Assembly: GCA_948891265.1 (NCBI GenBank)
Contig: CAQUBD010000003.1
Location: 9,789-73,788 of the forward strand
Reading direction: 5' to 3'
Length of the DNA: 64,000 nt
Origin: an uncultured Clostridia bacterium
GTDB lineage: Bacteria; Bacillota; Clostridia; TANB77; CAG-508
Of the stretch, positions 3,755 through 17,566 are shown piece by piece (position 1 is the stretch's first letter; each line of letters opens with the position of its first letter). The translations under genes and the position numbers were made by a program. The notes under the pieces were generated by a model that saw only the letters and a program-made list of their open reading frames with translations, had not been told where the DNA came from and searched no databases.

Positions 3755-3961
3755 ATGTGGACTTATGATAAAATGTTAGAATATCCAATTAATATAAAAT
3801 GTACAGACCCAAGACTTGCAAAAGTTATTATTTCTCAATATGGAGGGCCTGACGGAGAGCTTGCAGCTTCTTTAAGATATTTATCTCAAAGATTTGGTAT
3901 GCCAGATCAAAAAGCTAAAGCTATTTTAAATGATATTGGTACTGAAGAATTAGTGCCTTGA
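3755..3961 (+). CDS. cotJC: 5' segment (fragment 1 of 3) of a CotJC-like manganese catalase family spore-coat gene, interrupted by intervening element A
   Basis: MWTYDKMLEYPINIKCTDPRLAKVIISQYGGPDGELAASLRYLSQRF...DIGTEEL matches the Mn-catalase/CotJC N-terminus (MWVYEK.LQYPV...QYGGPDGELAAALRYL...DIGTEE). An AAGGGGG RBS sits 7 nt upstream of the ATG at 3755. The tool ORF starts at 3734. Homology ends at DIGTEEL, then VP-stop. Confidence 0.8.
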   Translation: MWTYDKMLEYPINIKCTDPRLAKVIISQYGGPDGELAASLRYLSQRFGMPDQKAKAILNDIGTEELVP

Positions 3962-4120
3962 TGATGTCAATAGCTAAAGACAATATTTACAATTAGCTAT
4001 TGACTGTAAAATGTGGTATTTTGAATTTGCAATTTTATGTAAAATATGCTGTACTTTATATAGCAACTGTAAATTTTTCATTTCAAATCTTGCTGAATAG
4101 CAAGTAGAAAGTGTGACAGT

Positions 4121-4360
4121 ATGATTGATGTTATACCTATAGTAACAGCTTTTGATCAAAAAAGCATTTGTTTTTCTGTTGACATTTTTAGCGAAGGTAA
4201 AGAAGTTGGGAAAGCAAGTGTGATACTTGGTAAAATCGGAAAAGATGAACCAAAAGTGAGATTTTATCAGGCGTACGATATATACATAAATATGTCAAAT
4301 GAAATATATTCAAAAGCTACAGAATCATGCATATATGCATCTAAGGTAATTTGGGGATAG
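4121..4360 (+). CDS. Small hypothetical protein, 79 aa
   Basis: ORF with slightly elevated GC. No recognisable family. Confidence 0.3.
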   Translation: MIDVIPIVTAFDQKSICFSVDIFSEGKEVGKASVILGKIGKDEPKVRFYQAYDIYINMSNEIYSKATESCIYASKVIWG

Positions 4361-4385
4361 TAATATCCCCATTTTTTAATACTAT

Positions 4386-5942
4386 TTATTTTGGTATCTT
4401 TGGATATATATGTAATTCAAAATTAGTTGGGTTAGAATCCTTTTTTATTGCTTTTTCAGTTTTTAAATATGTAACTTTTGCTAGAATACTTTTAAGTAAG
4501 ATGTTTCTATCTTCAGCAGCTTCTAGTTTACAATATAAATCTATAACATTTTCAAGTTTTGGTATCATTATTTCTTTTTCGTTCTGTACTTCTGTACTTT
4601 TTTGCAGTATAGAACTATATTCTTCTAATTTGCTTTCTAAATTTTGAATATTATCTTTTATAGTTTTCGAGCGATTTATAAATTCATCTTTGCTATAAAT
4701 ACCATTTTCTAAAAAGTCATATATTTTATCAAGTTTAGTATTTTCTTTTTCTAATTCTTTTTTGGTAGTAGATATAGACTTTTCAATTATTTTAGTATTT
4801 TCAGTATTTGAATTATCTTTGACTTCATAATCTACTTTGTAATTTTCAAGCCAAATTTTTAATGCTTCAATAATTTTATTTTCAACAATATAAAGTTTAG
4901 AACTTACATTGTCACATTTAGAATTAGAACACATAAGAGTTGCAGGTTTATCAGCTTTTGCATAAGGTCGTCTTTGCATTGGCTTGCCACATTTCTCACA
5001 AAACACTAAACCAACTAATGGATTTTGAATAATATTACTATGTTTAACTTTTGGAGTATTTTGTTTTCGCTTTTCTTGGACTAATTCCCAAGTTTTATTA
5101 TCAATAATAGGCTCATGTAATCCATTATAAATTAAATAGTCTTGATTACGAGGTCTACTTATAATAATATGTCCATTTTTCGTTTTCTTTTTTTGTTTCC
5201 TTCTATTCCAAACAATCTTACCAATATAGGTAGGATTAGAAAGAATATCTTTAACAGAAGAAATAGTCCATTCATTAGAAATTCTAGGTTTTAAATTCAT
5301 ATCATTTAACTGTTTTACAACTGAATTTATAGTGTTACTTTCAAAGGTATATAATCTAAAAATTTCTTTAACAATAGGTGCTTCATCTTGATTTACAGAT
5401 AAAGAATAGCCTTTTGAATCTTTTAGTTTAACTCTATCATATCCAAATGGAGCAATATTGCCAACGAATTTACCTTCAGAAACAGAAATTTCACGACCTC
5501 TTTGTAGACGCCTATTGATTGTCTTATATTCTCTTCTAGACATAAATAAGCCAAATTCAAAATATTCTTCATCAAACTCATTATCTGGGTCATAGGTTTT
5601 AACAGGTGTAATAATTTTTGTATGAGAATATTTAAAAGCCTTTGAAACTCTACCTTGATCAGCAGTATCACCACGAGCAAGTCTTTCTACTTCTACAACT
5701 AAAACACCAGTCCATTTCTCATTTTCAACATCTTTAAGAAGTTTTTGCATTTCTTTTCTTTCACTAATCGTTTCACCACTTACAACTTCTCTATAAATTT
5801 TTGAGATATGTAGGTTTCGTTTTTCAGCTAAAGTAGTTAGAATTTTCTCATGTCTTGCTAAAGTTTCGCCTTCTCCATATTTTTCAGATTCTATATCTTC
5901 TCTTGATTTTCTTAAATATATTGCATATGTGCCATCTTGCAC
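4386..5942 (-). CDS. Large serine recombinase, 518 aa
   Basis: N-terminus AIYLRKSREDIESEKYGEG... (S-R-E-D catalytic motif). It also has a recombinase domain, a Cys-containing zinc-ribbon region (CEKCGKPM...CSNSKC) and a coiled-coil C-terminus. Confidence 0.9.
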   Translation of the reverse strand: MQDGTYAIYLRKSREDIESEKYGEGETLARHEKILTTLAEKRNLHISKIYREVVSGETISERKEMQKLLKDVENEKWTGVLVVEVERLARGDTADQGRVSKAFKYSHTKIITPVKTYDPDNEFDEEYFEFGLFMSRREYKTINRRLQRGREISVSEGKFVGNIAPFGYDRVKLKDSKGYSLSVNQDEAPIVKEIFRLYTFESNTINSVVKQLNDMNLKPRISNEWTISSVKDILSNPTYIGKIVWNRRKQKKKTKNGHIIISRPRNQDYLIYNGLHEPIIDNKTWELVQEKRKQNTPKVKHSNIIQNPLVGLVFCEKCGKPMQRRPYAKADKPATLMCSNSKCDNVSSKLYIVENKIIEALKIWLENYKVDYEVKDNSNTENTKIIEKSISTTKKELEKENTKLDKIYDFLENGIYSKDEFINRSKTIKDNIQNLESKLEEYSSILQKSTEVQNEKEIMIPKLENVIDLYCKLEAAEDRNILLKSILAKVTYLKTEKAIKKDSNPTNFELHIYPKIPK

Positions 5943-6005
5943 ATTTCCTCCTTTCCTTGTAATTTGTCTTTAACTTAGCCTTATTATATCTGTAATTGCA
6001 ACAAA

Positions 6006-6149
6006 TTACAACAAAGAAGGATTTATTTTTTTTATTAAATTAACAATAACATTATCTATATATTCTTTTTGATTAGTCGTATTTTCTACAATATAATCAT
6101 CATAAAATTTTACTTTAGTATTTTCTAATATGTATTCTTCTAATAACAT
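6006..6149 (-). CDS. Small ORF (47 aa) immediately upstream of the recombinase; candidate accessory factor
   Basis: An AAGAGG RBS precedes the internal ATG. The tool ORF runs 6006..6218. No homology recognised. Confidence 0.25.
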   Translation of the reverse strand: MLLEEYILENTKVKFYDDYIVENTTNQKEYIDNVIVNLIKKINPSLL

Positions 6150-6354
6150 ATAAATCGCCTCTTTAAAATTTATGAAAAAAATATAAAAAAATACCCAAGA
6201 CAAACTTGTCTTGAGCAAATTTATATTTTTTCTATGATAGCATTATATGATGGGCAATTTATAAAATCAATTCCCTTTTATTTCCCTTTTTTCTAAATTA
6301 GTTAGTAATAGAAATAAGATTTATTTAAATAAGATAAAAGTAGAAAATAAATTC

Positions 6355-6383
6355 TTGCAAATACGATAATTTTATGTTAATAT
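6355..6383 (+). promoter_or_regulatory. Sigma-A-like promoter candidate for the radical SAM gene
   Basis: ttgcaa, then 17 nt, then taatat, about 50 nt upstream of the ATG at 6435. Confidence 0.3.
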
Positions 6384-6434
6384 TAATATTAGTTTAAAGT
6401 TAGCAAAAAATAAAAATAGAAAGGATATGATTAT

Positions 6435-7352
6435 ATGAATTCTAAATATGTTGCTATTGCAGTTACTACTGAATGTAACTTGAAATGTCCATATTGCCAA
6501 AGTACAGGAGAAAGTATTCCAAATGTGCAAGGTATGTGGGATTATAACCGGTTAAGAGAAGTTATAACAGCTTTTTTAGAAGTTGGTTATAGGAATTTTA
6601 GAATTACAGGTGGAGAACCTACCACAGTTCCATATTTAGGAGAATTATTAGATTTTCTTCTACAAGATTCTGATGTGAAAGTACGAATAAATACCAATGG
6701 TTGTGATATAGAAAAATATGTAGACCATTTAAGCTCGCAAACAGAAGTAATATTTAGTGTAGATGGATTAAAAAATGTTTTTTTTCCTAAAAGGTTAACA
6801 GATGAGTTACTAAGGAAAATACAATATTTGCAGTCAAAAAACATTTCAATAAGACTAAACTGTGTAGTTACAAAACACAATTCCAATGAAATACTTGAAT
6901 TAATACAATTTTGTTCTAAAGAAGGATTGAATTTAAAATTGCTTGATTTGTCTCCTAGAACAGACTATCAGGGAAAAATTCAGAATGATTTTTGGAATAA
7001 TAACTACTTTGGATTAAACAAATTGTGTATTCCTTTTCCTAAGGTTGCTTCGGAATTTAGAACCAGTATGATAAAAAAGGGAACAGGAATACCTATGAGT
7101 GGATATAGTTTAGGAAACGGACATTGGCTACAAATAAAGGATTCTAGTAAGAAACCTTATTATGCTTTAGTATGTAAGTATTGTCCTTATAAAGATAATT
7201 GTATAGAAGGTGTATTTTCTCTTTCATTATCTGTTGGTGAAATTTTAAGAGTAGCCAATTGTGTTAATCAAAATTATTGGATAAAACTTAGAGGTTTGAA
7301 TCAAAGACAAATTGAAGAAGAACTAAAGAAAATGGAAAAAATCTTTTTTTAA
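6435..7352 (+). CDS. Radical SAM protein (MoaA-like core with a C-terminal Cys cluster), function unknown
   Basis: CNLKCPYC (Cx3Cx2C) and the FRITGGEPT glycine-rich SAM motif. C-terminal CKYCPYKDNC...C resembles a twitch/SPASM-like auxiliary cluster. Confidence 0.85.
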   Translation: MNSKYVAIAVTTECNLKCPYCQSTGESIPNVQGMWDYNRLREVITAFLEVGYRNFRITGGEPTTVPYLGELLDFLLQDSDVKVRINTNGCDIEKYVDHLSSQTEVIFSVDGLKNVFFPKRLTDELLRKIQYLQSKNISIRLNCVVTKHNSNEILELIQFCSKEGLNLKLLDLSPRTDYQGKIQNDFWNNNYFGLNKLCIPFPKVASEFRTSMIKKGTGIPMSGYSLGNGHWLQIKDSSKKPYYALVCKYCPYKDNCIEGVFSLSLSVGEILRVANCVNQNYWIKLRGLNQRQIEEELKKMEKIFF

Positions 7353-7372
7353 GTAATAATTAAAAAACAAAA

Positions 7373-7397
7373 AGCGAGGGAAACCTCGTTTTTTCTA
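7373..7397 (+). terminator. Rho-independent terminator after the radical SAM gene
   Basis: gcgagggaaacctcg hairpin followed by tttttt. Confidence 0.55.
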
Positions 7398-8104
7398 AAT
7401 TATTTAAAAAACTTAGAATTTATAATAATATTAGAAATAGAAAATTATTATAATTTTACAAAAATTTGAATCTATAAAGAGTGATTTAATCCGTTATAAC
7501 AATTCTAATGTGCTTTATAAAATCAAGTCAAGGTTAAAATGAATGTGCTATCGCACAACCTTGACTTAATTTTATAAGCACATTGTCTTTTCAGTTAAGA
7601 GGATTTAAGGATAAGTATATTTAATTAAGTAGACATAAGTACATTTCAAGAGCAAAATACCTCATTAGAAATGAGGGCAGGAAAGAGAGTGTTCACACAT
7701 CGCTTATACACATTGAAGGACAAGCCTTCAAGAGTTAATAAAAGAACAAAAATTTTAAGCAGATATGATGTAGAAATTCACTGGGTGAACTGGTTCAAAC
7801 CCGCTATTCTTCGTTGAAATTGGAAATAGTGAACTAAAAAATTAAAAAAGTTCACTCATTTTAGGCAAAAGTTCACCAAGTGTACTAAAAAATTTTCTGA
7901 AATTTTGTAAAACAGTTACCGAGGAATCCTCGATAACTAGTTATAATAATACAAATTACAAAAATTTTAAGCTTGTTCCAAAATGGAACAAGCTCACTTT
8001 GTGTACTTAGTATTTGTGAAAATTTGTTAAAAAGTATTGATTTTGCAAATAAAATAACTTATAATGAATATAATAGTAGTGGATATTTAATATCTACTAT
8101 AATT

Positions 8105-8227
8105 AAAAATGTGAGTCGCAACCCTATTTGCGTCGAATAAATGGATAGGTGAAAAAATGTGAACCGCAACCCTGCTTGCGAGATATAAATGTGCAGGTGG
8201 AAAAATGTTAATTATAGTAAAATGTGG
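8105..8227 (+). ncRNA. Candidate type III antitoxin RNA (ToxI-like): 2 full and 1 partial tandem repeat of ~47-49 nt
   Basis: R1 is 8105-8151 and R2 is 8152-8200; each begins AAAAATGTGA. R1-R2 identity is about 80%, with compensatory changes cctat...atagg (R1) versus cctgc...gcagg (R2) that preserve a stem. A partial third unit (8201-8227) repeats the AAAAATGT boundary motif. Placement is promoter-like region, then repeats, then terminator, then toxin gene. Confidence 0.6.
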
Positions 8228-8260
8228 GGTCTATAAAATTAATTTAGATCCCATATTTTC
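8227..8260 (+). terminator. Terminator between the repeat array and the toxin gene, as in toxIN-type loci
   Basis: Stem gggtcta/tagatcc (7 bp, one G-U pair) followed by cauauuuuc. Confidence 0.45.
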
Positions 8261-8280
8261 ATAAAAGGAGTTAAATAATA

Positions 8281-8757
8281 ATGATAATAGAAGATGGAAA
8301 ATTTTATTTTATAAAAGATGAGTTTTTTGATATATTTAAAGATTATAAATTGATGGAAAACAAAGAATGCGGAAATAAAAGACCTTGCTACTTTTGCTTT
8401 AGAGATAGAAAAAACAAAGAAATAATATGGTTTGTTCCAATATCGACTAAATATGATAAATATAAAAAGATATATGATAATAAAAAATTAAAAATTGGAA
8501 ATAAACCAGTATATAATTTTGTTTTTGGTAATGTATTAGGTAAAAAAGCTGTATTTTTAATACAAAATATATTTCCAACAACAGAAGAATATATATTAGA
8601 GAAATATACAAATTCAAATATAGATGTAGAAATACCTACAGTAGTAAAAAATGAAATTATAACTACTGCATTAAGAGTTGTGAGACTTGCAGAAGAAGGC
8701 ATACATATTCCATTTTATAATATTGTTGAAATGAGAAATATTTTGTTAAAAGAATAA
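8281..8757 (+). CDS. ToxN/AbiQ-family type III toxin (endoribonuclease) candidate, 158 aa
   Basis: KFYFIKDEFFDIFKDYK...KRPCYFCF...WFVPISTKYDK follows the ToxN/AbiQ pattern (FY.I...Y...L..FD....RP..G......YFAPLSSPK). Size ~160-170 aa, AGGAG RBS. Confidence 0.6.
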   Translation: MIIEDGKFYFIKDEFFDIFKDYKLMENKECGNKRPCYFCFRDRKNKEIIWFVPISTKYDKYKKIYDNKKLKIGNKPVYNFVFGNVLGKKAVFLIQNIFPTTEEYILEKYTNSNIDVEIPTVVKNEIITTALRVVRLAEEGIHIPFYNIVEMRNILLKE

Positions 8758-8772
8758 AGAATAAAAAATATC

Positions 8773-8797
8773 ATATGTGCAGAAATTGCACATATGG
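8773..8797. repeat. Perfect 10-bp palindrome catatgtgca-gaaatt-tgcacatatg downstream of the toxin gene
   Basis: Inverted repeat seen directly. An A-run precedes it on the + strand, so it would act as a terminator only for the minus strand. Confidence 0.4.
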
Positions 8798-8962
8798 GCA
8801 ATAATAAAAAACAACAGTAAATTATAAGTTATAATAATTTAAAACGAAAATAAACTTAATCCGTTCACTTAGTGTACTAGTTTAATGCACCAAGTGAACT
8901 TATTTAAATTTATAGTATTTTACAGCCAATAGTACTAGATTTTTTGTAATTGACATCATCAT

Positions 8963-9085
8963 GGTACTGAAGAATTAGCACACTTAGAAATGGTTGGAAC
9001 AATAGTACACCAATTAACAAAAAATGCATCAATAGAAGAAATTGAAAAAGCGGGATTAAGTGCATATTATACAGATCATGGGGTG
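8963..9085 (+). CDS. cotJC: Middle segment (fragment 2 of 3) of the CotJC-like Mn-catalase gene
   Basis: GTEELAHLEMVGTIVHQLTKNASIEEIEKAGLSAYYTDHGV matches the central Mn-catalase region (DIGTEELAHLEMIATMVYKLTKDATPEQLREAGL..HY.DHG). The frame runs into a stop at 9092 after leaving homology. Confidence 0.75.
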
Positions 9086-9134
9086 GGTTTGTAATATCTC
9101 CTAATCCTGCTTTTTATTTTTTACTAATATAAAA

Positions 9135-9968
9135 TTAATTATCATTTTCAAATAATTCTTTAATATATAATTCTCTATTTTTAAGTTCATTGTTTTTACC
9201 TTGTAATAAATTCTCAAAAAACATTACTAAATAATCAAATGTAGGATAAATTCCTTTTGGAATATTTCCATAGTTACTTCTAACTAGTGCATTTCTAAAA
9301 TATAAGCTTTTATCTTTAAACATATCATTATTAACATTAAATCCCATATTATTAAGATATTTTTCAATAAATACTGCTGTAGTTCTAGTATTTCCTTCTC
9401 CAAATGGATGTACTTGCCAAATGCTTGAAGTGAATTTTGAAATATGTTTAATTAATTCATCATTATTTAGTTTTGAATAATCAAATTCTTTTTCTTCTTT
9501 AAAATCATAATCAAAATAGCTTTCTATATCTTGATAATTTACATATTTAACGGTATGGCCATTTAGGATGTTCTCTTTTTTGGTAATATTATAATTCCTA
9601 TAATTACCTGCAAAATCATAAATATCTTTAAATAGGTATTTATGAATATTCTTTAAAGTAATAGGACTAAAACCAAAGCTCTTATCTTCTAAAAGCTGTG
9701 CTATTCTTAAAGATACTAAATCGCATTCTTTTTCTTTTTGAATATTTATATCATTATGATTTTGTGTTTCATAATATGTTTTTAATAAGTTTTCTACTTC
9801 GTAATATTTTAATTCTCCATTAATATTTTTTTCAGATAAGTCTAATAAATATTTAGAAGGCTTTAAATTATCAACTTTATTTAATCCAATACCCGTATTC
9901 CAATATTCTTGTTTTTTTGTAGTATCAGTTATTTCATTTTCAATTATATAATTTTCTTCATTAGACAT
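9135..9968 (-). CDS. Fic/DOC family protein (putative AMPylator / toxin-like)
   Basis: HPFGEGNTRTTAVF matches the Fic motif HPFx(D/E)GNGR with one substitution. Length 277 aa. Confidence 0.8.
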   Translation of the reverse strand: MSNEENYIIENEITDTTKKQEYWNTGIGLNKVDNLKPSKYLLDLSEKNINGELKYYEVENLLKTYYETQNHNDINIQKEKECDLVSLRIAQLLEDKSFGFSPITLKNIHKYLFKDIYDFAGNYRNYNITKKENILNGHTVKYVNYQDIESYFDYDFKEEKEFDYSKLNNDELIKHISKFTSSIWQVHPFGEGNTRTTAVFIEKYLNNMGFNVNNDMFKDKSLYFRNALVRSNYGNIPKGIYPTFDYLVMFFENLLQGKNNELKNRELYIKELFENDN

Positions 9969-10045
9969 ATAAAAACCTCCTAAAATTTCTCTTTTTCATA
10001 CCTTAATATTATACCATAAAATGCCTAAACTTACTATAGTTTTGC

Positions 10046-11674
10046 CTAAAAATTCCAATGAATTACAACATCTTGAGTTTTAGTCTTTTTGTCTGCTCTG
10101 CAAATTTCATCTGTAACAGGCAAAGCCTTAACAGCTGAAAATTTTTCTCCAATTTCAATATAATCTATAAAGCTATTAACAATATCATAATTAAGTTCTT
10201 TAAAATCTTTAAAGTGATTAATTATTTTCTCTTTTTGTTCTTTTATAAATTTACTGTTTAATTCTTTTTCCTTTAAATTAGATAAATCATTTTCGACTTT
10301 TATTAGTTCTTTTTGCTTTGCTGATTTATCAGATAAAAAAGAGGAGTTTAAATCTTCAAATACATCTTCTGGAACTTTGCCACTTACTTTGTTTAAGTAA
10401 AGTTCTTTTATAGCTTTATTAATGCTTTCCATATCTTTAGATAAAGTTTCTTTTTTGTTTTCTAGTAATTTGGATTTATTTATGTTGTCATTTGAAACAA
10501 ATAACTCATCAGAAATATTATCAAAGTCATAAAATGCTAAAATTTTCTCTTTAATTTTTTCTGTTACTAAATTTTTAAGATTTTCATAGCCAATAGAATG
10601 TGTAGTGCAAGTTCCATATAACTTTCTAGAGCCTTTACAAGAAAAATAAATGTAACCTCTATCATTTTTGCATTTATAAAGTTTTGTTCCACAATCTAAA
10701 CATACTAGCTTATTAGCAAATATATGAACTTCGCCATTTTTACATCTTCTTGTTTTATTTTTAAAGATTTCTTGAACTTTATAAAATTGTTCTTTAGTAA
10801 TAATAGGTTCGTGAGTATTTTCTACAATAATCCATTCTGATTTAGGCTGATTTACCATTTTTTTAGATTTATAGCTTACTTTTTTATTATAACCTTGTAC
10901 CAAATTACCAATATAAACTTCATTTTTCAGTATTTTACTGACTGTAGATTCACACCAATAGTCAATATTTTTGCCTTGATTTCTAAAATTAATTCCTTGT
11001 GACTGTTTATATTTAGTTGGTGTTAAAATACCTTTGTCGTTTAATATTTGAGCAATTTTAGTAACACCATTTCCTTGTTCATAAAGGTTAAAAATCAATT
11101 TAATAACATCGGCTACTTCTGTATCAATAACAAGTTTATTTTTATTCTCTGGACTTCTTTTATATCCATAGCACACAAAAGAGCCAATATGTAATCCTTG
11201 TTTTCTTTTACTATCAAATGTTTTTCTAATATTTTCTGATAAATCCTCTAAATACCACTCATTAACTAAACCATTGATTTGTCTTGATTTCTTATTTCCT
11301 TTATCTAATGTATCAACATGATCTACAAGGCTAACAAATCTAATATTCCACTCGATAAATTTATTGTGTAGGTATTTTTCAACTATTTCCATATCACGAG
11401 TAAATCTACTTTGTGTTTTACAAAGTACAATATCAAATTTATGGCTTTTAGCATCTTCTAATAATTTATTAAATTCAGGTCGTTCACTGTCGATTCCAGA
11501 ATAGTCCTCATCACAGTAAATGTTATAAATATCCCAGCTCCTTTCTATTGCATAATTGATTAGCATAGATTTTTGATTTTGGATACTTTCGCTTTCATCG
11601 TTTTCGTGTAGTTTGTCATCATCTTCACGAGAAAGCCTACAATAAATTGCCACTCTCATAAGTTTACCCTCCAA
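10046..11674 (-). CDS. Large serine recombinase, 542 aa
   Basis: MRVAIYCRLSREDD... catalytic motif, a recombinase domain, a Cys zinc-ribbon (CLDCGTKLYKC...C) and a coiled-coil C-terminal region. Confidence 0.9.
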   Translation of the reverse strand: MEGKLMRVAIYCRLSREDDDKLHENDESESIQNQKSMLINYAIERSWDIYNIYCDEDYSGIDSERPEFNKLLEDAKSHKFDIVLCKTQSRFTRDMEIVEKYLHNKFIEWNIRFVSLVDHVDTLDKGNKKSRQINGLVNEWYLEDLSENIRKTFDSKRKQGLHIGSFVCYGYKRSPENKNKLVIDTEVADVIKLIFNLYEQGNGVTKIAQILNDKGILTPTKYKQSQGINFRNQGKNIDYWCESTVSKILKNEVYIGNLVQGYNKKVSYKSKKMVNQPKSEWIIVENTHEPIITKEQFYKVQEIFKNKTRRCKNGEVHIFANKLVCLDCGTKLYKCKNDRGYIYFSCKGSRKLYGTCTTHSIGYENLKNLVTEKIKEKILAFYDFDNISDELFVSNDNINKSKLLENKKETLSKDMESINKAIKELYLNKVSGKVPEDVFEDLNSSFLSDKSAKQKELIKVENDLSNLKEKELNSKFIKEQKEKIINHFKDFKELNYDIVNSFIDYIEIGEKFSAVKALPVTDEICRADKKTKTQDVVIHWNF

Positions 11675-11724
11675 TCGGTAAACTACTCATTTTGTACAAC
11701 CCCATTATACAATAACAAGTAGTT

Positions 11725-11853
11725 TTAATCAACGCTCTTTGCAAATTCATTTATAATTAATTTATTAACAATATTATTTATATATTTTATAATATCATCT
11801 ATATTTTCATATTTGTTCTTTTCAATAACATTAAAATTAACTTTTTCGCACAT
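11725..11853 (-). CDS. Small ORF (42 aa) upstream of the recombinase; candidate excision/directionality factor or regulator
   Basis: Strong GGAGGAAC RBS 5 nt before the ATG; MCEKVNFNVIEKNKYENIDDIIKYINNIVNKLIINEFAKSVD. No homology recognised. Confidence 0.3.
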   Translation of the reverse strand: MCEKVNFNVIEKNKYENIDDIIKYINNIVNKLIINEFAKSVD

Positions 11854-12058
11854 AACAGGTTCCTCCTTTTAGCAAGAGCTCCCATACTCCTGCTATTAAT
11901 TCATATTCAAAAGGGCTTGTATTTGTGCTAAAAAGCAAAAAAATAAAGCCCTTTTACAATCTTGGCTTTAAAATAAAAATATATTTAATTAACATATGTT
12001 TTTCCTCATTTCTTACTATATAAAAACAAAATTTTATTAAAAATCTAATAAAATCTTG

Positions 12059-12526
12059 TTACCTACTAAAACAACATACATGTTTATATTTTTGTATTGG
12101 TACTTTGATATTCATATTTATAGTTTTTGGAATATCAAATCCGACTTTTAATTTTCTATCTATTACTAAATTTCCTTTACTATTTGTATGATAAGAACTT
12201 GAATTCCATTTTGCAAAAGCATAGTCTGACATAATATTAGTAGTATAAGATAATTCTATTGCATCTTGTTTTTGCTGTGATATCATTTGTTCATAACTGT
12301 TGTCATCTTTCTTTGGTCTGTCATAAGTTTTAAGATATTCTTGTAAATAAACTTTTCTATTTTTAGCATTTGTTTTTTTACGAGTTTCCTTTTCTTGTTT
12401 GTTTCTATTGTCAGCTTTTACAACCTTTGAAACATAAGGACAGCTTTTTCCAACTATTTTAGCAATTTCATTTTGTTTTAGATGGTCATTATAATATAAG
12501 TTTAAAATCTGTTCTTTAGTATTCAA
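12059..12526 (-). CDS. Helix-turn-helix DNA-binding protein (sigma-70 region-4-like HTH at the N-terminus)
   Basis: LKQNEIAKIVGKSCPYVSKVV is a typical HTH. The long basic tail is uncharacterised. Confidence 0.55.
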   Translation of the reverse strand: MNTKEQILNLYYNDHLKQNEIAKIVGKSCPYVSKVVKADNRNKQEKETRKKTNAKNRKVYLQEYLKTYDRPKKDDNSYEQMISQQKQDAIELSYTTNIMSDYAFAKWNSSSYHTNSKGNLVIDRKLKVGFDIPKTINMNIKVPIQKYKHVCCFSR

Positions 12527-12585
12527 TTTTTCTTTTTCCTCCTTTGGTTAACTTTTTGTTTGCAAGATTTTAAATACAATTCGCC

Positions 12586-12614
12586 TATTGACATTTGTTA
12601 TTAATTGTTGTATT
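12586..12614 (+). promoter_or_regulatory. Sigma-A-like promoter candidate
   Basis: ttgaca, then 17 nt, then tattat, in the divergent intergenic region upstream of 12744. Confidence 0.35.
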
Positions 12615-12743
12615 ATTATATTGTAAAAAATCTTACATAATAATTTCATATTGTTATTATACGATTATAATTTATATTTGTCAATACAATTTTAAACATT
12701 TTATTAAAATTTTTTACAAAACAAAAAACGAAGGAGATAAAAA

Positions 12744-13877
12744 ATGAGAGAATTACCTCGCCATCTTGTTTTAGAAGATTTCTATATATGGTTTAATATG
12801 AAAGATAAAGAAGAATATTATGCAACACCATTATATTTATATAATGTATTAAGAAAAGATACAGACAAAGAAAATGATGAAGAAAAAAAGAAAGATGAAA
12901 CAAGAGTATATTTAGAGTTAGAAAAGGATATTTCAAAAACAAAATTAAATAAGAAAAAAGAAGTTATTAGACAACCTTCAACTATTTATATTCATTATGC
13001 AGAAAGCATAGGCTCATTGTTAATAAATTTTTTAAATGCTGACTTTTCATCTTTTCAATCTGCTTATAATACATTTTTTTATGCCTATGGTTTTGAATTA
13101 ATAAAAGAATATACACCTTACATATATTCAAAAACTGATGAGTGTATAACAGATGTAGAATTTATGAAAATGTTAGAAGATATTTATAACACAAGCCTAG
13201 ATGATTTATTAGAATGGCAAGATAATTTCAAGAAATGTGTAGATTTTGTATATAACTTAAATGGAAATGAAGAATTAAAAGAATATAATACATATTCAAA
13301 ATTTGTTGCTTATACAATTAAACACAACGAACTTTATACATATTCACAAGATGTAGAGGTTATATTAGATAATTATATAAATATACACAACCATCATCAC
13401 AATGAAAGTATAGAATATTTAATAAAAGGTATTGAAGATAAAAATCCAAATTTAGAATTACACAATGTTTATACAAGTACAAAATTGAGAAGTATTTGTT
13501 TTACTATATTAGATCAACTTGTAAGACAAGAAAATCTATCAATTAAAACTTGCCAAATTTGTGGTAGATATTTCATACCAACCTTTAGACAAAATGAAAT
13601 TTATTGTGATTTGAAAAATGTTGATGGTACACCAACTTGTAGAGATAAGGGAGCAAGTGAAACTTATAAAAAGAGTCTTAAAAGTAATCCAGCATTATTA
13701 CTTTATAGAAGAACATATCAGCAAAAGGTTATGACAGTATATAGAAACAAAGAAAATAAGCAATTAAAGAAAGATTTTGACAAATGGAAAAAAGAAGCAC
13801 AAGAAAAAATTAAATTATTCAAAAAAGGCAAACTAGATGAAGATACTTTGTATAATTGGATGATTGAAAATAAATAG
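12744..13877 (+). CDS. Hypothetical protein (377 aa) with a C-terminal Cys cluster; possible TnpY-like accessory protein
   Basis: C-terminal CQICGRYF...YCDL...PTCRDKG zinc-ribbon-like cluster. No family confidently recognised. Confidence 0.55.
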   Translation: MRELPRHLVLEDFYIWFNMKDKEEYYATPLYLYNVLRKDTDKENDEEKKKDETRVYLELEKDISKTKLNKKKEVIRQPSTIYIHYAESIGSLLINFLNADFSSFQSAYNTFFYAYGFELIKEYTPYIYSKTDECITDVEFMKMLEDIYNTSLDDLLEWQDNFKKCVDFVYNLNGNEELKEYNTYSKFVAYTIKHNELYTYSQDVEVILDNYINIHNHHHNESIEYLIKGIEDKNPNLELHNVYTSTKLRSICFTILDQLVRQENLSIKTCQICGRYFIPTFRQNEIYCDLKNVDGTPTCRDKGASETYKKSLKSNPALLLYRRTYQQKVMTVYRNKENKQLKKDFDKWKKEAQEKIKLFKKGKLDEDTLYNWMIENK

Positions 13878-13881
13878 AAAT

Positions 13882-13916
13882 AAATCCCTAAGTAAATTAA
13901 CTACTATAGGGATTTA
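13882..13916. terminator. Bidirectional terminator hairpin between convergent genes
   Basis: aaatcccta...tagggattt, a 9-bp perfect stem. Confidence 0.45.
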
Positions 13917-13939
13917 TTTCGTATGTGAGGAATCAATTA

Positions 13940-14293
13940 TTACTTATACTTTTTATTATTTCTTTCGTCATTTTTCTTTGCATCTATTGCCAGCATAACA
14001 ATGCCTATCATAGATAGAACGGCAATAGGCGCAGCTACATAAGGTTCCATCCAACCTTTTGTACTGCTTATAATTGAACACGCACATATAACACAGAGAA
14101 GAAAAAATAATAAGAAAAAATGAGTGACTGATATGAATTTATCATACAAGTTTGATTCCTCTGATTTTCTTACAAATTGTTCAAGAGCTTTATCTTCAAA
14201 AGGTTCTGACCGCTCTTGTTCTTCTAACATCTGTTGAAATTCTTCTTCTGACATTTCTAGAGCTTTTTTTACTGTCATTCTCTTGTCATCCAT
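13940..14293 (-). CDS. Hypothetical membrane protein (two C-terminal TM helices), higher GC
   Basis: Hydrophobic segments FFLLFFLLCVICACSII and APIAVLSMIGIVMLAI. Confidence 0.45.
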   Translation of the reverse strand: MDDKRMTVKKALEMSEEEFQQMLEEQERSEPFEDKALEQFVRKSEESNLYDKFISVTHFFLLFFLLCVICACSIISSTKGWMEPYVAAPIAVLSMIGIVMLAIDAKKNDERNNKKYK

Positions 14294-14483
14294 AAAATTT
14301 ACCTCCTATTATTATGTTGGAATTTTCCATTACATTGTCAATTATATCAAAAAATTCTCTAAAATATTTGTATTTTACATAAAAATATGATAAACTATTA
14401 AATATAAAATTTTATAATCTCCTTTTGGAGTTTATCATAGATAACAAGTAAACAGCACAATTAATATTGGAGGAGGTAAACAT

Positions 14484-14882
14484 ATGAAAGTAAAAACAGA
14501 ATATGTATCTATAACTCAGGCAGAAAGGATATTCGAAGTTATAAAGCAATCATTAAGCGTTACAAAGGATATTCAAATTTTTGTAGCAGAAGAATTGATT
14601 AAAGAATTACGGAGAAATGGCGTAGAACACCATGTTTATGAATTTAACGGAATGGGTTGTCATCATTATAATAAAGATGATGATGGTTTTGGAGGAGAAA
14701 CTTGGTATGGATATCATAAAGAACATGCTTTTTCACCTGTAATATCTTCAGCAAGCTTTATTTCCAATTGTAAAGGTTATTATCAGTTAGTAGAATTTCC
14801 AAATAAGAAAGTTCCAAGTGATTATTTACACTATGCAGTGGGATTTAAGGAATTGTTATTGATTGAAGTAGATACAATCTAA
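14484..14882 (+). CDS. Hypothetical protein, higher GC
   Basis: ORF preceded by a GGAGGAGG RBS. No family recognised. Confidence 0.5.
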   Translation: MKVKTEYVSITQAERIFEVIKQSLSVTKDIQIFVAEELIKELRRNGVEHHVYEFNGMGCHHYNKDDDGFGGETWYGYHKEHAFSPVISSASFISNCKGYYQLVEFPNKKVPSDYLHYAVGFKELLLIEVDTI

Positions 14883-14924
14883 AAAAGAGTAGCTTGTAAA
14901 CACATTTGTTAAGGAGGTACCAAA

Positions 14925-15116
14925 ATGGCGAATGAAAGAAATGTAGATTTAATGAACAATTTCGACAAGAGAAATGTTGAAAGTATTGACAAGCATATTA
15001 GAGAAGATGAACTTCCCCAAGAAGTATATGGAATGCTTGTTGATGAATCTGGACACGGAAAAGTCAAAGTATCAGAAGAAAGCAGAAAAATTTGTGCAAA
15101 AAATCTTTTGAAATGA
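14925..15116 (+). CDS. Small hypothetical protein, 63 aa
   Basis: AAGGAGG RBS. A terminator hairpin (aatgagag...ctctcatt, 15140-15175) follows. Confidence 0.4.
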   Translation: MANERNVDLMNNFDKRNVESIDKHIREDELPQEVYGMLVDESGHGKVKVSEESRKICAKNLLK

Positions 15117-15192
15117 TTTTTAAATTTCAAATCGCTAATGGAATGAGAGCCTATATGGACTCTCATTTCATTTCTACGATTTATATCTTATA

Positions 15193-16371
15193 TCAAATTT
15201 CTAAATCCCACTCTTTTTCTCTTTCTTCATGTTCAAGTTGTTTTACTGGATCAATAAATGTATGAGTGTCTTCTTCAAATTTTTTAACTAATTCTTTTGA
15301 TTCGCCAATACCAAATTTATGGCAAATCCAAACTATAAATTTATCAACAGTTTCATAGAATTTATCTATAATTTTGTGTAAATGACTATTTTCCTTTTCT
15401 AAACTTTTAATTTTACTTTTATATTTCCATTCAATATCAAATTCTTTTTCCTTATATTCTGCTTTAATATTGTTTACTTGATTATGAAGTTCTTTATTAT
15501 CAGCAAGTATAGAGTTTCTTTCTTTTTGATATTTTTCAGCTACATTAACTAAATTTACCTGTTTGGATAGTTCATTATGCAATTTTAAATTTTCTTGATA
15601 CAATTCCATAATTTTATCATCTTTTGGCTTAATAATTTCGTTTTCTACTTTTTCTCTATTAAGTTTTATTAGTTTAATATCATTTATATCTGGAGTTTCG
15701 GGTAATTCTAGTTTTATATTATCTAAAATCTTTTTAGTGTTTTCAAAATTAGTCAATTTCTTTAAATCCTCAATTTTTTCGTGTTTTGCACCAGTTTCTT
15801 CTACTGGTAAACCTCGCTCTAAATCAAACCCTTTTGAAGTTATATATTTGTGAAAAGCATTTTGTAGTTGTCTGTAACTATCTCTGCCTTTCCAAAAATC
15901 TCTACAGCATATTTTATCAATGTCATTTCCTTCTTTATCTTTTGTATGGATTACTGGTATATACACTAAATGCATGTGTGGAGTGGTTTCATCTAAATGT
16001 ACTGCTGCTGATACAATATACTTTTCTTCAAGATTATTATAATTACATACAAATTTATAACTTTCTTTAAAATATCTTTTAGTTTCTTCTAAACCAATCT
16101 TATTAAAAAAAGCATTATCAGAAGTAATCATTATTTCACACATGATATTACTATTACTTCTAATAGTGCCTTTTAAATCATATTCCTTTTTCATTTTATC
16201 AAATTCTTTTATATAAGTTAATTCGTTTTTCTTACACCAAAAATTGAGATGTGTTCTTGTAGGATCAATATCTTTATTAGAATGACCTTTTGACCTTCTA
16301 TCATTGTGAATGTATGATCCTTGTGCATCCACTCTTGTTAATTTATCATTTCTTATAATAGCATAGCTCAT
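15193..16371 (-). CDS. mob: MobV-family (Pre/Mob, pMV158 MobM-like) mobilization relaxase
   Basis: N-terminus MSYAIIRNDKLTR...HNDR...HSNKDIDPTRTHLN and HLDETTPHMHLVYIP (HxDE...PHxH) match MobM motifs. The coiled-coil C-terminus is typical of the family. Confidence 0.85.
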   Translation of the reverse strand: MSYAIIRNDKLTRVDAQGSYIHNDRRSKGHSNKDIDPTRTHLNFWCKKNELTYIKEFDKMKKEYDLKGTIRSNSNIMCEIMITSDNAFFNKIGLEETKRYFKESYKFVCNYNNLEEKYIVSAAVHLDETTPHMHLVYIPVIHTKDKEGNDIDKICCRDFWKGRDSYRQLQNAFHKYITSKGFDLERGLPVEETGAKHEKIEDLKKLTNFENTKKILDNIKLELPETPDINDIKLIKLNREKVENEIIKPKDDKIMELYQENLKLHNELSKQVNLVNVAEKYQKERNSILADNKELHNQVNNIKAEYKEKEFDIEWKYKSKIKSLEKENSHLHKIIDKFYETVDKFIVWICHKFGIGESKELVKKFEEDTHTFIDPVKQLEHEEREKEWDLEI

Positions 16372-16389
16372 ATCTTCTTTGAACCTCCT

Positions 16390-16560
16390 TCTTTGCTCAA
16401 GATATTCTTTGAATGTCTAACATACTAGACAAACAAGTTTGTCCCGTATGGCAGGGTTTAGCAACCCTACAACCCAAACCTAAAAATTGCTACTCGCATT
16501 TTTAGATTATTTCATAAAAAATGCTTATCGCAATTTTTATGAAATATGAGCAAAAAAATA
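16390..16560. promoter_or_regulatory. Candidate oriT / mob promoter region
   Basis: Inverted repeats gacaaac-aa-gtttgtc (16420-16437), agggtt-tagc-aaccct (16445-16460) and tcataaaaa...tttttatga (16510-16545), immediately upstream of the relaxase gene. Confidence 0.3.
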
Positions 16561-17242
16561 AATTTTTTTACTCATTTCACTTTAGCAACTATCAAGCAGA
16601 AGCCAGAGGGAGAGAGATAAAGTGAATTAGGTGTAATAATCCCATTTGTGAAAAATAGAATTATTACACCTATATAAGTTGAAACCGTCGGTCGTTCGCC
16701 TCGTTTCATAGGTAGTCTAGTAAGTAGTGATATTACTACTATAATTGCTGATGCTTAGGCTGTTAAACTTTTAGTTGTTACAGCCTAAGTATGCAAAATA
16801 ATTGAAAATTATTTTGTATTACCTTACATCTTTGTTCATACTTGCCCAAACTTTTTACAATTACAAATCCATATCAAATATGCCACCGAATACTCTTTTA
16901 TTATTGTGAGTCTGTGTTCTAAAATCTCACTCACGCACTTTGTATAATTAGACTGCTTATACTAATACGCGCATACTTTATAGCATCGGCTTGCTAAACC
17001 AAGAACTTTTATAGAGGTTCTGCATATCTCTTGCAATAAAAAAAGACATCTGTAACTTTTGCATTACAAATGACTTTCTTATTTAATATTTAATTATCTT
17101 TGTCCTCACAATCGATTTTAAGCAGAATAAAATTGTAAGGTAATAAATAATGCCTACAAAAAAATGTAGGCATAAAACTTCTTGTACAAAATAAGTAGTT
17201 ACATATATATTTTCTTTTAGGATAGATAACAAACACACACCA

Positions 17243-17566
17243 CACGGTGTAGATGTATACCCATCATCAGCAGCAGGAGTACCATTTACAGCAGCATATA
17301 TAGCATGTAAAGGAGATCCAATAGCAAATCTACAGGAAGACTTAGCAGCAGAGCAAAAAGCCAGAGCAACTTATGAAAAATTAATAAACTTATGTAGAGA
17401 TAATCCAGATGTAGTAGATCCACTTCGTTTCTTAAGAGAAAGAGAAGTAGTACACTTCCAAAGATTTGGAGAAGCATTAAGAGGAGTACAAGACAAATTA
17501 GCTGAAAAGAAGTTTTATATGAATGACATGAAACCTTATACAAATGATTGTGGATGTAATAAATAA
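17243..17566 (+). CDS. cotJC: 3' segment (fragment 3 of 3) of the CotJC-like Mn-catalase gene
   Basis: HGVDVYPSSAAGVPFTAAYIACKGDPIANLQEDLAAEQKARATYEKLINLCRDNPDVVDPLRFLREREVVHFQRFGEAL... matches the Mn-catalase C-terminal half (NAAGVPFTAAYIQAKGDP...AAEEKARATY...DPLRFLREREIVH.QRF). Stop at 17564-17566. Confidence 0.8.
   Translation, partial: HGVDVYPSSAAGVPFTAAYIACKGDPIANLQEDLAAEQKARATYEKLINLCRDNPDVVDPLRFLREREVVHFQRFGEALRGVQDKLAEKKFYMNDMKPYTNDCGCNK

Follow-up and report, generated by a model that had tools for sequence, protein, structure and literature searches.

The DNA analyzed here (the window) is a stretch of 64,000 nt from contig CAQUBD010000003.1 of an uncultured Clostridia bacterium. 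Between positions 8013 and 8778 it carries a compact locus composed of a promoter, a short array of tandem repeats, a terminator and a gene for a protein of 158 amino acids (aa). This locus is a new member of the CptIN family of type III toxin-antitoxin (TA) systems, and not a ToxN/AbiQ relative with a new RNA. Its features are listed below, with S and L denoting stems and loops of the repeat RNA and the suffix Er the system of Eubacterium rectale.

8013-8778, + strand: extent of the portable cptIN cassette (~750 bp), from blastn against loci outside the cotJC element
8037-8065, + strand: sigma-70-type promoter, TTGATT (-35), 17-nt spacer, TATAAT (-10), 10/12 match
8076-8100, + strand: 5' leader hairpin, GTAGTGGATAT-TTA-ATATCTACTAT, with outer pairs reaching 8071-8105 (RNAfold)
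8105-8152, + strand: cptI repeat R1, 48 nt (Tandem Repeats Finder, pair counts, comparison with CptI_Er)
8117-8121/8128-8132 (S1), 8122 (L1), 8123-8127/8145-8149 (S2), 8133-8144 (L2), 8150-8152 (tail UGA), + strand: parts of R1
8153-8200, + strand: cptI repeat R2, 48 nt (same three lines of evidence)
8165-8169/8176-8180 (S1), 8170 (L1), 8171-8175/8193-8197 (S2), 8181-8192 (L2, containing AUAUAAAUG), + strand: parts of R2
8201-8213, + strand: partial third repeat, AAAAAUGUUAAUU, conserved after R2
8219-8259, + strand: intrinsic terminator between the repeats and the toxin gene, with a 15-bp stem, an 11-nt loop and a U-run
8281-8757, + strand: cptN toxin gene, 158 aa, predicted endoribonuclease (NF047359, 4RMO match, AlphaFold 2 fold)

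Tandem Repeats Finder detects the repeats as a single array (8105-8208; period 48, 2.2 copies, 80% matches, score 129), and just one further array in the 64-kb window reaches a score of 80. The third unit is recognizable only to about position 8213, as AAAAATGTTAATT, and would supply the 3' processing site of R2. Upstream of the array, TTGATT-17-TATAAT is the best promoter-like match within 7800-9000, and the leader hairpin sits between its -10 box and R1. Downstream, the terminator hairpin (8219-8259) has a folding energy of -18.3 kcal/mol (z = -6.0), none of 200 shuffled sequences being equally stable; its 11-nt loop caused it to be missed by a simple terminator scan. A Shine-Dalgarno sequence, AGGAG, is found at 8266-8270, 10 nt 5' of the cptN ATG. 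An earlier note on this DNA, made from the letters alone, had proposed a type III TA locus of canonical layout, and the promoter, repeats, terminator and 158-aa open reading frame (ORF) on which it relied are all present and conserved. As for the repeat coordinates given there, the array stands, while the boundary at 8151/8152 is one base off and the partial unit extends to about 8213, not to 8227.

The distribution of the locus was analyzed by scanning one genome per species, which recovered 80 related loci with toxins 68-100% identical, all from metagenome-assembled genomes of gut Clostridia. Tandem Repeats Finder detected an array of ~48 nt x 1.9-2.3 in about 72 of these loci, and 79 of them yielded two units in register, a recurrence far beyond chance. 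Twenty-five diverse loci keep the -35 and -10 boxes, leader hairpin, R1, R2, partial R3, terminator and ribosome-binding site, with TTGA of the -35 box and TATAAT of the -10 box being nearly invariant. The partial unit is kept after R2 as (A/C)AAAUGUUAAU in nearly all related loci, and a terminator hairpin stands at the same position in all those aligned, its sequence being unrelated in a divergent clade. RNAfold predicts the leader hairpin in 30 of 30 distinct leaders; in the divergent clade its stem is formed by another sequence (AGAGATAC...GTATCT). No mention of this hairpin was found in the CptIN literature examined; one guess is that it acts as a stabilizing 5' structure.

The junction motif AAAAUGUG recurs a fourth time at 8219-8226, in the 5' arm of the terminator. 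There it is kept in the close clade, as AAAAU(G/A)UGGGG, and is absent from the terminator of the divergent clade.

The toxin was identified solely through NCBIfam and PDB sequences. Its ORF matches NCBIfam NF047359.1 (CptIN family toxin, equivalog) with 159.3 bits (cutoff 90, E 5.7e-47) over profile positions 1-150 of 150, and its residues 7-142 match 4RMO, the CptN of E. rectale and its only solved relative, in a phmmer search (E 6.6e-18). Searches at E ≤ 1 returned no Pfam family, the ToxN/AbiQ model included, and no PADLOC model. An AlphaFold model built from 57 diverse sequences reached pLDDT 92.7 and pTM 0.88; a model from a shallow alignment (77-97% identity) reached pLDDT 47.6 and was discarded. 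The best PDB match of the former in Foldseek is 4rmo_A (E 1.9e-10, TM 0.85/0.87, root-mean-square deviation 2.1 A), followed in the list by MazF/Kid-type toxins (TM ~0.45), with ToxN_Bt (4ATO) at rank 26 (TM 0.46) and AbiQ (4GLK) at rank 40 (TM 0.67). This ranking agrees with the published remark that CptN resembles Kid more than ToxN does. The ToxN/AbiQ membership at first suggested for the ORF thus gives way to CptN.

The active site of CptN_Er has been described as a Ser-Ser/Thr-Arg triad with a stacking Tyr104 (Rao 2015, PMC4627078). In the window toxin, the motif P-I-S55-T56-K57 aligns to P-L-S51-S52-R53 of this enzyme and Y109 aligns to Y104; S55 is invariant in an alignment of 35 diverse members, the family consensus being PISSK. 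The ratio of nonsynonymous to synonymous substitution rates (dN/dS) between cptN and 42 relatives is 0.06-0.27, and this purifying selection shows that the protein is functional, nothing more. The family comprises 923 clusters at 50% identity (E ≤ 1e-3). No homolog of the toxin occurs in 50,697 phage records, and a plasmid search returned 6 weak matches only. Judged by its sequence and its model, the ORF is clearly a CptN toxin, a predicted endoribonuclease.

In the published survey of Blower 2012 (PMC3401426 Table 2), cptI repeats have lengths of 40-48 nt (mean 44.8) and copy numbers of 1.9-3.4. CptI_Er, whose sequence AAGUUUACCACUGACCGAUAUGUGGUAUAUAAAUGGUCGGGUUGA was recovered from the primer table of Rao 2015, is a 45-nt H-type pseudoknot with a single-base L1, an A-rich L2 (A27-G35) and an outward kink at U30 (PMC4627078). 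The L2 9-mer of this RNA, AUAUAAAUG (A27-G35), occurs verbatim in R2, with AUAAAUGG in its place in R1. On the strength of the repeat length and sequence, the earlier note had considered a new repeat family, in which case the locus would be a ToxIN/AbiQ-like system with an antitoxin RNA of ~48 nt standing apart from toxI, antiQ, cptI and tenpI. The repeat is indeed without an Rfam match and is 3 nt longer than the one crystallized cptI, with a 5' strand of 12 versus 6 nt and an L2 of 12 versus 9. However, 48 nt x 2.2 lies within the published cptI range, the topology, one-base L1, AUAUAAAUG and UGA tail are as in CptI_Er, and the toxin, which belongs to no Pfam family, scores above the CptIN equivalog cutoff and superposes on CptN. 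A new RNA family is therefore very unlikely.

The fold of the repeat was evaluated on an alignment of 61 distinct units (49 columns), in which the pseudoknot tested was S1 13-17/24-28, L1 C18, S2 19-23/41-45 and L2 29-40. Each repeat is an H-type pseudoknot with an S1 of 5 bp, an L1 of 1 nt, an S2 of 5 bp and an A-rich L2 of 12 nt. Standard pairs occupy 98.9% of the 610 cells, compared with 24-52% when the partners are slid by 1-3 columns; changes on both sides are seen in 7 of the 10 pairs, and none of 500 shuffles reaches the observed percentage paired or the covariation score. S1 occurs as CGCAA/UUGCG, CGCCA/UGGCG and CGGAG/CUCCG, and S2 as CCUAU/AUAGG, CCUGC/GCAGG, CCUAC/GUAGG and CCUUG/CAAGG, with G-U pairs in two cells of S2. 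The compensatory difference between the window repeats (CCUAU...AUAGG in R1, CCUGC...GCAGG in R2) from which the earlier note had deduced an RNA stem is located in S2, and covariation across the units from homologous loci supports that stem; since a second stem, S1 (CGCAA/UUGCG), is nested with it, the structure is a full H-type pseudoknot.

In the alignment, AAUGU at the junction and A35, A36 and U38 of L2 are fixed. The counterpart of the kink U30 can be U, C or A between invariant flanking A's, which fits a base making no contacts. Lengthening of S1 by two outer pairs was rejected, as these are mostly unpaired, and the C18-G47 pair is invariant and hence uninformative either way. Minimum free energy folding of single repeats (z of -0.1 and -0.7) is uninformative because the fold is a pseudoknot, for which covariation counting is needed. 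A scan of 7800-9000 against Rfam at E ≤ 10 returned only chance matches to eukaryotic snoRNA, miRNA and lncRNA models.

R1 and R2 are 75-80% identical and behave as stable paralogs, with CCUAU-type S2 helices in R1 and CCUGC- or CCUAC-type helices in R2; the two helices differ in 43 of 44 distinct combinations. A role of this difference as a guard against mispairing between units was discarded as too weak, cross-pairing still yielding 4.05 pairs of 5 versus 4.94.

Covariation alone cannot tell a trans-acting from a cis-acting RNA, and the position of the repeats, in the 5' leader of the ORF and ahead of a terminator, is that of attenuators. The repeats could thus serve only in cis for a gene of some other function, either at the RNA level, as a structured leader or an attenuator, or as sites in the DNA, with no antitoxin activity. 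The downstream protein, however, is an equivalog-level match to a toxin whose repeats proved to be a trans-acting antitoxin (PMC4627078). In addition, the G-U pairs of S2 and the strand-specific promoter and terminator favor RNA over DNA sites, and the partial third repeat is conserved, as expected of a processing site. A purely cis-acting role is, in consequence, hardly credible.

The junction between units has the consensus ...GGUG(A/G/U)^(A/G/U)(A/C)(A/G)AAUGU (the caret marks the unit boundary), in which only A4, A5, U6, G7 and U8 are invariant; unit positions 48, 1 and 2 vary and position 3 is A in ~90%. CptI_Er is cut at ...UUGA^AAGUUU, with A45 as the scissile base and G44 before it (PMC4627078). 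By analogy, a cut at ...GGUGA^AAAAAUGU, which is the unit boundary drawn in the earlier note, is plausible here, and given that only A4-U8 are invariant it may fall a few bases inside the A-run, within that boundary.

The cassette forms part of a small intervening element (element A), which is followed by a second element within the same gene. The features of this region are:

3755-3953, + strand: cotJC-like Mn-catalase-family gene, 5' fragment (tblastn with a CotJC probe)
8963-9081 and 17248-17521, + strand: middle and 3' fragments of the same gene (tblastn with a CotJC probe)
3954-8978, no strand: intervening element A, ~5.0 kb (direct and inverted repeats, in-silico removal)
3938-3953 and 8963-8978: 16-bp direct repeat GGTACTGAAGAATTAG flanking element A
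3952-3978 and 8942-8968: imperfect inverted repeats flanking element A
4386-5942, - strand: large serine recombinase of element A (Resolvase PF00239, Recombinase PF07508, Zn-ribbon PF13408)
6006-6218, - strand: 70-aa ORF directly upstream of the recombinase
6435-7352, + strand: MoaA-like radical-SAM gene, below every NCBIfam cutoff
~9082-17247: second element, with a Fic/DOC gene (9135-9968) and a serine recombinase (10046-11674)
12744-13877 and 15193-16371: further genes of the second element, for a DUF6076 protein and a Mob_Pre relaxase

Joining 3755-3953, 8979-9081 and 17248-17521 yields one 191-aa ORF (PF05067 Mn_catalase, 186.7 bits), which is co-linear with an intact gene in locus L045 and with the junction in locus L002. 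The fragments are 51-54% identical to the B. subtilis CotJC probe. From this similarity we infer that the split gene is the spore-coat gene cotJC. The att-like repeats and the frame restored on removal uphold the earlier proposal that the locus resides in a recombinase-bearing element interrupting a sporulation-type gene, and lend structural support to element A as a putative intervening element. The same element is found in L001-L011, L013, L014 and L022, with recombinases 81-99% identical to that of the window in most of these and 54% in L014; as a rule, these loci lack the second element.

Two independent insertions stand in tandem in the 576-bp cotJC-like gene, the first (~5.0 kb) at codon 66 and the second (~8.2 kb) at codon 100. 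Both have a large serine recombinase of their own, and most relatives carry the first only. By its gene content, the second looks like a small mobilizable island. In element A, the 70-aa ORF is co-conserved with the recombinase (73-99% identity, 14 loci) and has no Pfam or NCBIfam family match; it may act as a recombination directionality factor or as a regulator. The radical-SAM gene varies as cargo, only the window and L001-L003 having it. Elsewhere in the window, the only other strong tandem array, at 39257-39361 (35 nt x 3.0, 95% identical), lies inside a 1199-aa ORF (38075-41674) that appears by eye, from its motifs, to be an AddA/UvrD-like helicase; the 105 nt of its three copies (3 x 35) preserve the reading frame of the ORF, with the frame changing from copy to copy.

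The cassette itself is not bound to element A. In nearly all of ~65 loci outside the cotJC element, blastn similarity is confined to a segment whose start falls at 8009-8060 and whose end falls at 8738-8778, so that the shared DNA opens just 5' of the -35 box and closes ~20 nt 3' of the stop codon; later starts occur in two loci, one cut by the contig end (L026) and one with a divergent promoter region (L064). A gene for SpoIIID (TIGR02844, 121.3 bits, cutoff 111.5; also PF12116) is found nearby in 37 of the 80 related loci. In at least six of the loci (L024, L028, L032, L050, L078, L079) a segment of 4.6-8 kb stands between the two halves of a split spoIIID, as in L028, where the halves lie at 610-723 and 8262-8402. 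This segment contains cptIN followed, at its right edge, by a distinct recombinase, a large serine enzyme sharing 24-27% identity with that of the window, and STVHKDV is duplicated at both split-spoIIID junctions. In ~20 further loci the C-terminal half of spoIIID directly follows the recombinase, and in L006 cptIN adjoins the 3' part of cotJC together with a third recombinase type. The cassette is therefore associated with three distinct lineages of serine recombinases and recurs in elements interrupting either cotJC or spoIIID. In the open-access literature searched, neither a split cotJC nor a split spoIIID was found described.

The family to which the locus belongs, its anatomy, its RNA fold and conservation and its genomic surroundings were observed here, and the following molecular mechanism, whose cleavage, inhibition and stoichiometry are taken from the CptIN family, is likely. 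A constitutive-looking sigma-70-type promoter would transcribe the leader hairpin, the two 48-nt cptI repeats and the partial third. Most transcripts would end at the terminator, so that the RNA antitoxin would be made in excess, and read-through would provide little cptN mRNA. CptN, a small endoribonuclease with a Kid/MazF-like fold, would cut the precursor at the A-rich junction into single units, which would fold with an S1 of CGCAA/UUGCG, a 1-nt L1, a 5-bp S2 and a 12-nt A-rich L2 and stay bound to the toxin with its active site blocked. Cleavage by CptN_Er takes place after A and leaves a 2',3'-cyclic phosphate, and its protein-RNA complex is a closed 2:2 assembly (PMC4627078); by analogy with this E. 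rectale system the complex is probably a closed 2:2 ring here as well. Once the supply of the labile RNA stopped, free CptN would cleave cellular RNA and cause arrest or death. Vegetative cells that lose the excised, non-replicating element would thus be penalized, and the element would be kept in the lineage.

From its context, the most likely role of the cassette is to stabilize the element. CptIN_Er had a stabilizing effect on a plasmid and failed to protect E. coli from phages (PMC4627078); this, together with the fact that the carriers are non-replicating once excised, the constitutive look of the promoter and the other TA types that are established cargo of skin elements, favors stabilization. 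The same module could instead have been selected for phage defense by abortive infection and be carried as cargo of the element, in which case a phage that shuts down host transcription or degrades RNA would deplete cptI and CptN would kill the infected cell. Other type III families (ToxIN, AbiQ, TenpIN) do abort phage infection (PMC3401426), mobile elements often carry defense genes, and the cargo nearby includes a radical-SAM protein as well as a Fic protein of the adjacent element. On the other hand, neither cptIN of E. rectale nor that of R. torques protected against six coliphages tested, and the E. rectale locus, which was ineffective against more than 200 coliphages, did stabilize a plasmid (PMC3401426, PMC4627078); the toxin also matches no PADLOC model at E ≤ 1. 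Its lack of homologs among the phage records is neutral in this respect. Selection for abortive infection in the native host is the less likely of the two roles, though a plausible one.

As a whole, the locus is best explained as a CptIN-family type III TA system with a repeat-RNA antitoxin and an element-stabilizing role, to which a probability of roughly 0.85 is assigned. The following points weigh against this explanation. First, Asp81 and Ser85 of CptN_Er, which read the scissile adenine (Rao 2015, PMC4627078), align to the non-identical V85/N84 and A90 in a poorly aligned, gapped loop, and the corresponding columns vary across the family. Second, R2 ends in GG rather than GA, which leaves the cleavage register uncertain. 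Third, the phage tests of CptIN were made only in E. coli with coliphages, so that abortive-infection defense may still operate in the native host, and the stabilizing role is read from context. Fourth, cptIN stands beside an intact spoIIID and no recombinase in eight loci (L042, L044, L046, L062, L063, L065, L074, L076), so that the cassette persists without an excisable element; pure addiction fails to explain these loci and abortive infection would explain them better. Their arrangement suggests decayed or fixed elements. In L044 spoIIID starts 178 nt after cptN, and L046 keeps an extra N-terminal spoIIID fragment.

A more specific form of the stabilizing role can be put forward tentatively. 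The clade may represent a specialized anti-loss cassette that has passed between at least three lineages of serine recombinases, with cotJC (at two sites) and spoIIID as their targets, and that kills vegetative cells upon loss of the element, even though excision would otherwise be to the host's advantage. If so, type III TA systems would be part of the machinery that keeps programmed DNA rearrangements heritable in Clostridia, and the split spoIIID and split cotJC would be newly recognized developmental rearrangements.

For the biology of type III TA systems the value of the locus is modest and lies in a well-sampled clade, with 61 units and compensatory changes in both stems, which supports independently the CptI fold known from a single crystal structure. 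CptIN has so far been without a clear natural role, and here it is a recurrent cargo of small excisable elements of gut Clostridia. Its recurrent residence in elements that split spoIIID or cotJC provides a concrete hypothesis, element addiction, and is the most interesting part of the locus; the elements also point to sporulation-gene rearrangements that were not found described in the open-access literature searched.

Among known systems, the closest is CptIN_Er, which has the same layout of promoter, about two repeats plus a partial one, terminator and toxin. The repeats share with CptI_Er the order of elements, the 1-nt L1 and a UGA 3' tail beside an A-rich junction, and the toxin shares with CptN_Er its fold (TM 0.85), the catalytic Ser-Ser/Thr-basic motif and the stacking Tyr, at 34% identity in the family alignment and 27% in the Foldseek structural alignment. 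The repeat is of 48 nt in the window and of 45 in Er, a difference due mainly to a longer 5' single strand (12 nt, 6 in Er) and a longer L2 (12 nt, 9 in Er), and the 2-nt S2-S1 linker of Er is missing here. In contrast to the Er system, R1 and R2 keep different S2 helices, K57 replaces R53 and the adenine-reading Asp81 and Ser85 are not conserved; moreover, the window cassette lies inside a putatively excisable element, whereas that of E. rectale is at a plain chromosomal site.

ToxIN of Pectobacterium atrosepticum and Bacillus thuringiensis and AbiQ/antiQ of Lactococcus follow the same type III logic as that predicted for the window locus, with repeats separated from the toxin by a terminator and an endoribonuclease that processes tandem pseudoknot RNA repeats and is inhibited by them. 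The ToxN/AbiQ fold is distantly related to that of the window toxin (TM 0.67 with AbiQ, 0.46 with ToxN_Bt). Their repeats are of 35-36 nt, form triplex pseudoknots and assemble into heterohexamers, as opposed to the 48-nt period of the window, and ToxI-type arrays have near-identical repeats, unlike R1 and R2. Abortive infection has been demonstrated for ToxIN/AbiQ but not for CptIN.

The skin-element TA modules offer a parallel in genomic setting, being cargo of a recombinase-excised element that interrupts a mother-cell sporulation gene, as is presumably the case here. A stabilizing role for these modules has only been suggested, whereas for type I TA modules in C. difficile prophage regions there is experimental support for stabilization of those regions (PMC6563280, PMC6562991). 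The skin-element antitoxins are antisense RNAs or proteins, compared with a protein-binding pseudoknot RNA in the window, and skin elements interrupt sigK, while the window element interrupts a cotJC-like gene and related ones spoIIID. As in skin, SPbeta, vfbin, vrin, gin and yin, a large serine recombinase lies near the left end (432 bp inside in the window), short direct repeats mark the junctions and precise removal restores the host ORF. The window element differs from all of these in being very small (~5 kb) and not prophage-like, and in that two elements occur in tandem in one 576-bp gene.

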